Shown here one piece after another: positions 43,752-45,207 of a stretch of 64,000 nucleotides of DNA. Source of the stretch: Escherichia coli (GTDB lineage: Bacteria; Pseudomonadota; Gammaproteobacteria; Enterobacterales; Enterobacteriaceae); assembly GCF_036507355.1 (NCBI RefSeq), contig NZ_AP027877.1. One strand, 5' to 3'. The notes below the pieces were generated by a model. The model had not been told where the DNA came from, made no database searches, and was given only the letters and a program-made list of their open reading frames with translations. Numbering within the stretch: position 1 is the first letter of the stretch; each line of letters begins with the position of its first letter. The position numbers were made by a program, and so were the translations under genes.

Positions 43752-44327
43752 ATGGAATACTTTGATATGCGTAAAATGTCGGTAAATCTGTGGCGAAATG
43801 CTGCCGGTGAAACGCGAGAAATTTGCACTTTCCCACCGGCAAAACGTGATTTTTACTGGCGTGCCAGCATTGCATCCATCGCGGCGAATGGGGAGTTTTC
43901 TTTGTTTCCCGGTATGGAAAGGATAGTGACGTTGCTGGAAGGCGGCGAGATGTTCCTTGAAAGCACAGACCGCTTTAACCATACCTTAAAACCGTTACAG
44001 CCTTTTGCCTTTGCGGCGGACCAGGTGGTAAAAGCGAAACTGACGGCAGGGCAGATGTCGATGGATTTCAATATTATGACGCGCCTGGATGTCTGTAAGG
44101 CGAAAGTCAGAATAGCCGAACGTACGTTTACTACCTTTGGCTCACGCGGCGGGGTGGTGTTTGTAATTAACGGGGCGTGGCAACTGGGCGACAAACTGCT
44201 CACTACCGACCAGGGCGCGTGCTGGTTCGATGGCAGGCACACCCTGCGGCTTTTACAACCGCAGGGTAAACTGTTGTTCAGTGAAATCAACTGGCTCGCT
44301 GGTCATTCGCCGGATCAAGTTCAGTAA
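43752..44327 (+). CDS. ves: HutD-family cold/osmotic-stress protein Ves
   Basis: 191 aa from ATG 43752 ([24 protein letters not shown]); the ORF-track TTG start at 43689 is rejected. Confidence 0.88.
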
Positions 44328-45174
44328 TTTCATAGTTACCGGAAAGCAGCGGCTTACAAAGAATTTTATAACCGTCGTGATCAAACCCGGCGGGTGTCCG
44401 AATTAACGTTGTCGCTTCTTCCAGCGAATTAACCGCCCCCAGCCACAGCCAGTTTTGAATAATATGATATTGAGTCATTTCCGGGTGCTGTTCTTTCAGT
44501 GCCACCGCACCTTGCCAAGGCCAACACACCACCCGCAAACGCTCCAGAGACTGGCGCAAGCGTAGCGCATGTTCCTCATGGCTCTCTTTACCGCAACACG
44601 CCCCAGCGCAACGTTTTAGCGCTGAACGAAAACATGCACGACCGCGACTTAACGGTTCCAGTCCCAACAGGCCATAACAAAGTTTTTGTTCATCAGCGAT
44701 GCTCTGCAATGCTTGCAAAGCTGCGCGCCTATTGGCAAACAGGCCAAACAGGTTGGGGGCTCGTGAAAAATCCACCTCTTTGGCATACACCACATCGACG
44801 CGCTTTTCGTTTAATTGCAGGGCACAGAGCTGGCGATTGCGGCGCAAGCGTTTATTAAACAGTGGCTGTTGTTCTTTGATTAATCGCGCTTCAAGGAGCA
44901 GAGCGCCGATTTCACCGGCGGTGCAGATCCAGCTAATTCGCCGGGATTGCCGTAGCATGGCGGCTTCATCTGGGGTGCGTAAATGAGAAAGCACCCGACT
45001 GCGGATATTAACGCTTTTGCCGATATAGAGCGGCATGGTGTCACTTTCGCCATGAAACAGATACACCCCTGGTCGGGTGGGTAAGTCATTAAGGAATGAA
45101 CGTAAATGTTCGGGATATTCATAAATTGCCGCAGCTTCAAATTCGAGCCGCGGAGAAGTTAAACGCCGTACCAC
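44287..45174 (-). CDS. cho: UvrC-homologous excinuclease Cho
   Basis: 295 aa with GTG start; GIY-YIG nuclease motif ([25 protein letters not shown]); 3' end overlaps the ves 3' end by 41 bp. Confidence 0.92.
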
Positions 45175-45187
45175 TGTTAACTCCGAA

Positions 45188-45207
45188 TGCTGGTTATCTA
45201 TCCAGTG
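45188..45207 (-). promoter_or_regulatory. LexA (SOS) box upstream of cho
   Basis: Minus-strand CACTGGATAGATAACCAGCA shows CTG-N10-CAG with an AT-rich centre; 15-30 bp upstream of the cho start. Confidence 0.7.

Follow-up and report, generated by a model that had tools for sequence, protein, structure and literature searches.

The convergent genes ves and cho of Escherichia coli: a LexA-controlled excinuclease gene and a 41-bp coding overlap that probably arose as a by-product of end-to-end packing

In the window analysed, a stretch of 64,000 nucleotides of Escherichia coli DNA, the genes spy, ves, cho, and nadE very probably form a normal E. coli region, in which cho is controlled by LexA and the overlap between the ends of ves and cho is a passive by-product of the end-to-end packing of two convergent genes. 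The present study determined where the two genes lie and to which families their products belong, how well the LexA box scores and is conserved, how much the overlap varies in length, and how poorly the C-terminal tails are conserved; that LexA controls cho and that DNA damage induces it is known from the literature. The outcome mainly confirms a sound annotation and carries little wider weight. Its comparative addition consists of a series of overlaps of 4-45 bp, together with variants that possess a spacer or lack ves, which illustrates a convergent overlap growing by drift of the stop codon into the conserved end of the neighbouring gene. This series of overlap lengths argues for an overlap that is tolerated rather than selected.

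Gene content and identity of the ves and cho genes

Matches to the region 43600..45450, covering 80% of its length or more with 95-99% identity, were found in 5424 of the 5426 complete E. coli genomes; the identity was 97.7% to a K-12-type record and 99.1% to the best match. In the RefSeq annotation of two matching E. coli genomes, the genes follow each other as astE, spy, ves, cho, nadE, and osmE. The ves gene (43752..44327, plus strand) starts with ATG, ends with a TAA stop codon (44325..44327), and codes for a protein of 191 amino acids that belongs to the HutD family. The cho gene (44287..45174, minus strand), present in both the list of open reading frames and the RefSeq annotation, starts with GTG (45174..45172), ends with a TGA stop codon (44289..44287), and codes for a protein of 295 amino acids.

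Both names, which had been given in a first-pass annotation made from the sequence alone, turned out to be correct according to RefSeq, the NCBIfam equivalog models, the Pfam HutD model, and the structures of the UvrC domain. Indeed, Ves scored 150 bits against the Pfam HutD model PF05962 (cut-off of 25; residues 8-175) and 427 bits against the NCBIfam Ves equivalog model NF008488 (cut-off of 292), and it matched the HutD structures 5FCC and 1YLL. Similarly, Cho scored 579.6 bits against the NCBIfam Cho equivalog model NF007833 (cut-off of 367; residues 1-287), and its N-terminus (residues 23-111) matched structures of the GIY-YIG domain of UvrC (1YCZ, E = 1.6e-8). The UvrC models reach only to about residue 205 of the 295 residues of Cho, the C-terminal half of UvrC being absent. 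Incision by Cho at the 3' side, dependent on UvrB, is described in a summary of Moolenaar 2002 within PMC518961. The cho gene of the window very probably encodes an SOS-inducible excinuclease homologous to UvrC.

The ves-cho locus of E. coli K-12 shares with that of the window its genes, the 41-bp overlap, the GTG start, an identical 25-mer around the LexA box, and the sequence of the FliA promoter of ves. The window differs from it by strain-level substitutions only, one of which strengthens a hairpin within ves. In the E. coli genome NZ_CM149872.1, the match was limited to 53% of the query, with the neighbour of ves annotated merely as 'endonuclease', which suggests that cho is disrupted or rearranged in that strain.

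The LexA box and the control region of cho

A LexA (SOS) box, CACTGGATAGATAACCAGCA, is located on the minus strand at 45188..45207, 14 to 33 nt upstream of the GTG of cho, with its CTG-N10-CAG core at 45190..45205. The box is an imperfect 20-bp palindrome similar to TACTG(TA)5CAGTA; it was assigned by matrix score and by its identity with a published motif. For scoring, a LexA position weight matrix was derived from 17 sites listed in PMC3009722 (Table 4), cho being excluded, and applied to both strands of the window. A matrix was used because the bare CTG-N10-CAG pattern is uninformative as evidence for LexA binding and was rejected as such: it occurred at 31 sites in the window versus 13 expected from dinucleotide shuffles, an excess that is most likely an effect of codon usage (CTG and CAG being abundant) and not of additional LexA sites. 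Among all these CTG-N10-CAG sites, only those at 45190..45205 and 55646..55661 scored well by the matrix. The cho box reached 19.4 bits, the highest score in the window, where about 128,000 positions were scored (mean of -27, standard deviation of 9), and it fell within the range of the 17 published sites (13.8-28.1 bits). The chance of such a score was 1.6e-7 per position, corresponding to about 0.02 expected occurrences per window, and 19.4 bits was attained in three of 200 windows simulated with a first-order Markov model. The assertion of the first-pass annotation that an SOS box precedes the GTG of cho is hence upheld, both by the best matrix match of the window and by the published operator. 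Indeed, the 25-mer TACACTGGATAGATAACCAGCATTC, which contains the box, was reported in 2010 as the LexA motif of cho ahead of a UV-induced gene (PMC3009722, Table 4). Furthermore, cho (ydjQ) is named in a review among the genes with a known SOS box, and the Salmonella orthologue ydjQ has a single box and responds to nalidixic acid with a 3.3-fold induction. The cho operator is an already published LexA site and belongs to the textbook LexA regulon.

Conservation of the control region was assessed in a comparative set of 82 loci, consisting of 80 loci retrieved by a scan of species-representative genomes (Escherichia, Citrobacter, Salmonella, Enterobacter, Klebsiella, Kosakonia, and other genera) and two annotated E. 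coli loci (L001 and L002). A LexA box of at least 15.3 bits, starting 31-36 nt upstream of the start codon, was found in all 81 loci for which upstream sequence was available. When 80 of these upstream regions were aligned, both half-sites (CTG and CAG) proved invariant and the spacer between them variable. The GTG codon was retrieved as the start in 79 of 81 orthologous loci and in the list of open reading frames, supporting its designation as the start codon of cho. In the aligned regions, the GGAG motif of a Shine-Dalgarno sequence (45181..45184, minus strand), 6 nt upstream of the GTG, was conserved as well.

Just ahead of the box, the same 80 regions share the consensus cTGcTAyACTG, which reads as an extended -10 element of the form TGnTAYACT. 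In the window, this predicted element, TGTTACACT, is located at 45204..45212 on the minus strand, with the TG at 45212..45211 and the hexamer TACACT at 45209..45204, and its last four bases fall within the LexA box. A scan for sigma-70 promoters consisting of two hexamers found none for cho or ves; the cho promoter is missed by such a scan because its -35 element is poor, and the extended -10 element emerged only when several genera were aligned. The operator thus appears to overlap both the predicted -10 element and the likely transcription start, which fits repression by promoter occlusion. LexA bound to the 20-bp operator would block access of RNA polymerase to the cho promoter, and DNA damage, by way of LexA cleavage, would lift this block.

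Geometry and reality of the 41-bp overlap

The coding sequences of ves and cho overlap tail to tail over 41 bp, at 44287..44327 on both strands. The RefSeq annotation of two E. coli genomes and the list of open reading frames agree on a ves stop at 44327, a cho stop at 44287, and the 41 bp common to both genes, as the first-pass annotation had proposed. Of these 41 bp, 35 bp consist of sense codons for both genes, and the remainder is made up by the two stop codons (TAA of ves and TGA of cho). The reading frames face each other in the phase (123:132), the first codon position of ves being opposite the first of cho, the second opposite the third, and the third opposite the second. Three parts can be discerned. 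At 44287..44306, the conserved end of Ves (the third base of I179 and the codons N180-H185) lies opposite the tail and the stop codon of Cho; at 44307..44313, the tails of both proteins are encoded; and at 44314..44327, the conserved end of Cho (from D287 back to T284, and two bases of I283) lies opposite the tail and the stop codon of Ves.

It is exceedingly improbable that this overlap is an artefact of annotation or sequencing. With a query of 101 nt, the junction was found in 5404 of the 5426 complete E. coli genomes, with at least 99% identity in 4008 of them, and both ves and cho were annotated at the junction in every record sampled. Furthermore, homology supports the reading frames as far as L286 of Cho and W181 of Ves, which is within 9 and 10 codons of their ends, respectively. 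Since each stop codon is simply the first one met in a frame that homology has confirmed, the overlap cannot be removed by re-annotation of either gene. The two genes form a convergent overlapping pair, being genuine genes on opposite strands with their first in-frame stop codons inside each other. The 41-bp overlap of ves and cho is already known from E. coli genome annotation.

Overlap length across genera

Among the 82 loci, ves was directly convergent on cho in 60, was located about 1.8 kb from cho in three, and was missing from the 3-kb flank in 19; Salmonella and Klebsiella are among the genera without ves beside cho. An overlap was present in 55 of the 60 adjacent pairs, and its length was 41 bp in 17 loci (Escherichia and Citrobacter), 23 bp in 16, 7 bp in six, 32 bp in five, 4 bp in five, 15 bp in three, 45 bp in two, and 10 bp in one. 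The five other pairs were separated by gaps of 3, 28, 46, 46, and 48 nt instead. In the overlapping loci and in the locus with the 3-nt gap, the anchor residues Cho 286 and Ves 181 were encoded only 7-30 nt apart, with insertions and deletions between them. Two of the spacers were inspected (28 nt in L045 and 46 nt in L051), both of which contained a GC-rich palindrome. In Salmonella arizonae and Klebsiella pneumoniae, ves was absent and cho ran straight to the terminator region of spy, and ves therefore represents a presence/absence polymorphism between spy and cho. As judged from this comparison, with its variable lengths, the spacers in some loci, and the lack of ves in many, the overlap is evolutionarily dispensable.

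Some additional observations were made on these loci. A terminator-like palindrome follows spy in the window, where the terminator scan flagged a minus-strand site at 43583..43569 and an inverted repeat is seen by eye from 43561 to about 43632. The cho-spy spacer of about 75 nt in locus L007 (3880..3950) resembles this palindrome region. Some public records look mislabelled or mixed. Within one metagenome-assembled genome labelled 'Citrobacter sp.', cho was present on two contigs, one of E. coli type (L003, 98%) and one of Citrobacter type (L062). A record labelled 'Chryseobacterium sp. 18061' (L046) carries an enterobacterial ves-cho locus, the Cho and Ves lengths, overlap length, and C-termini of which match those of L078, labelled 'Citrobacter sp. 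18056'.

The C-terminal tails and the constraint on the overlap

The Ves proteins of Escherichia and Citrobacter, and only these, are 191 amino acids long and carry a tail of six residues, SPDQVQ; in most genera, Ves counts 185 amino acids and ends in ...WLPGH. The length of Cho ranges from 286 to 295 amino acids among the orthologues. In E. coli, it carries a tail of eight residues, PANDQRAS, and in many genera it ends at about ...YEIIELD (286-287 amino acids). The 41-bp overlap exists because the six-residue tail of Ves and the eight-residue tail of Cho in Escherichia and Citrobacter each cross the conserved end of the partner gene. Both tails are poorly conserved. Residues 267-276 of the Cho core had an occupancy of 100% and a pairwise identity of 92%, and its tail (residues 287-295) had an occupancy of 54% and a pairwise identity of 26%. 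The Ves tail (residues 186-191) had an occupancy of 29%, with a pairwise identity of 69% among the sequences that possess it. In addition, the family models stop short of the tails, at residue 287 for the Cho model and at residue 175 for HutD. AlphaFold models derived from the alignments place the end of the last strand at residue 285 in Cho and at residue 181 in Ves, with a pLDDT below 50 for residues 291-295 of Cho. Both tails are presumably dispensable and neutral.

The nucleotide diversity of the overlap was 0.181 versus 0.213 and 0.236 in the flanking 120 nt, as calculated for 18 sequences with the 41-bp arrangement. A strong double coding constraint was thereby dismissed, as the diversity of the overlap is close to that of its flanks. 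The variation occurred mainly at third codon positions of ves (0.303) and not at those of cho (0.089), so that the codon periodicity of the overlap follows the ves frame; the tail of Cho therefore changes its amino acids freely. The statement of the first-pass annotation that the shared sequence constrains both C-termini was overstated: the overlap itself is real, but it consists mostly of non-conserved tails, each lying over the conserved end of the partner, and its diversity is only slightly lower than that of the flanks.

The ves-cho pair resembles convergent overlaps in general. According to a survey of 58 genomes, (123:132) is the commonest phase of convergent overlaps of at least 5 nt (49%); E. 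coli has 58 convergent overlaps, and the statistics agree with their having originated by mutation of stop codons (Lillo and Krakauer 2007, PMC2174442). The pair shares with those overlaps the orientation, the phase, a short C-terminal read-on, and the lack of a rho-independent terminator in the overlap. It differs from them in that its 41 bp exceed their modal length of 4 bp; the relatives of this pair span 4-45 bp. For ves and cho, the overlap very probably arose passively between convergent genes packed end to end without an intergenic terminator. In the lineage of Escherichia and Citrobacter, the first in-frame stop codon of each gene lies inside the partner, adding SPDQVQ to Ves and PANDQRAS to Cho, and it is presumably the conserved end of the partner beneath each tail that is under selection.

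Transcription across the junction

A promoter recognized by FliA (sigma-28) precedes ves. This promoter, AACGTAAATCACCCGAGTTGCCGATAAC, at 43672..43699 on the plus strand, with its -10 element GCCGATAA at 43691..43698, is identical to a site published on the basis of FliA ChIP-seq (PMC4183435, Table 2). The -10 element was conserved in most genera, where TGCCGATA(A) was present upstream of ves. This TGCCGATA(A) element was missing in the Pseudescherichia-type loci L051, L055, and L066, the same loci that possess a spacer of 46-48 nt and no overlap.

The terminator scan predicted no intrinsic terminator within or near the overlap. A search of 43000..46500 against Rfam retrieved no RNA family at the overlap, the only matches, of REP type, being located between nadE and cho. 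On the cho-sense strand, the RNA folded at -47.6 kcal/mol over 141 nt (z = -2.4). The GC-rich core of a hairpin is located at 44242..44266 on the minus strand, inside codons 164-172 of ves; read along the cho strand, it lies 21-45 nt past the stop codon of cho. Its 8-bp stem (CCCTGCGG/CCGCAGGG) extends to about 12 pairs in the fold, and the hairpin has one G:C pair more in the window than in K-12. The Escherichia loci retained the hairpin (-20 to -24 kcal/mol over 57 nt), and other genera, which encode different residues here, lacked it. Because the hairpin has no U-run and is confined to Escherichia, a role as a conserved terminator was rejected. This Escherichia-specific hairpin might stabilise the 3' end of the cho mRNA.

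Alternative explanations for the overlap

Transcriptional interference, which the first-pass annotation had raised, is possible at the junction. A regulatory role of the junction was considered, and an active one seems unlikely. The genes would then act as an excludon, in which transcription of cho (under SOS control) or of ves (by sigma-28) proceeds antisense through the partner and lowers its expression, either because polymerases collide or because RNase III cleaves the RNA duplex. A working excludon of this kind would join two regulons, SOS-derepressed cho lowering the sigma-28-dependent ves transcript or ves of the flagellar phase dampening the basal expression of cho, and it is doubtful that the junction functions in this way. 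If it did, DNA-damage signalling would be tied to a gene of the flagellar regulon with unknown function (ves). The pair indeed appears among the 165 convergent excludons that ExcludonFinder retrieved in at least 50% of 58 MG1655 transcriptomes (PMC12288877, Table 1), and the lack of a predicted terminator, the separate conditional promoters (LexA for cho and FliA for ves), and the close packing in 55 of the 60 adjacent pairs would all suit such a role. There is also a precedent in the tail-to-tail pair mscL-arfA, which works via antisense RNA and RNase III and is likewise composed of convergent E. coli genes with overlapping transcripts. For mscL-arfA, however, antisense regulation and RNase III processing were demonstrated experimentally, whereas the listing of cho-ves is based on coverage; moreover, the coding regions themselves overlap in cho-ves and not just the untranslated ends. 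Because the coding regions overlap, the ves and cho transcripts overlap too, which makes the listing trivial, and reciprocal expression has not been reported. A literature search, including under the name ydjR, yielded no report of the overlap altering the expression of ves or cho, and the supplements of a UV tiling-array paper contained nothing on either gene. The comparative data oppose a regulatory role as well: neither the length nor the phase of the overlap is conserved, in four loci the genes are 28-48 nt apart, and ves is missing beside cho in many genera, yet the LexA box of cho is unchanged in them. An overlap that is evolutionarily dispensable argues against a required regulatory role. 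Finally, both promoters appear weak, that of ves according to the expression columns of PMC4183435 Table 2 (18 versus 0) and that of cho according to a Salmonella ydjQ-gfp fusion that gave no detectable fluorescence.

The C-terminal extensions might also serve a function of their own, for instance as a partner-binding or stability tag, the overlap being kept as both of them are needed; this is very improbable. The 41-bp arrangement and the SPDxVQ motif of Ves are constant across the Escherichia and Citrobacter species, but the tail of Cho varies freely in the same set. Moreover, such extensions are wholly absent from most genera and lie outside the family models and beyond the last predicted strands. 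The constancy of the Ves tail can be ascribed to the YEI(T/I)ELD core of Cho, which is encoded on the opposite strand. The same constancy could be held against a passive by-product, as SPDxVQ is fairly constant in Escherichia and Citrobacter, although this is what the Cho core opposite would lead one to expect. In addition, the tight, terminator-less packing has been kept in most genera that possess ves, which may reflect selection and not deletion bias alone. A passive by-product of end-to-end packing is nevertheless the explanation strongly favoured for the overlap.

Other elements in the window

Two abutting LexA-like boxes were found at 55644..55681, namely AACTGTCGATACGTACAGTA with 15.5 bits and, on the minus strand, CACTGTATAAAAATCCTATA with 13.3 bits, being the second- and third-best matrix matches of the window. 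They are located directly upstream of an open reading frame for 200 amino acids on the minus strand (55039..55641), the product of which resembles the membrane protein YdjM. The ydjM gene is an SOS gene with a double box. In a Salmonella paper, ydjM is also described with two boxes. Between nadE and cho, the Rfam family ES036 (CssrF), a small RNA, was matched on the minus strand at 45282..45324 (42.9 bits; gathering score of 37.6), and naRNA4 (CssrE) gave a sub-threshold match at 45328..45364. Seen by eye, the stretch 45282..45364 resembles a REP-type element.
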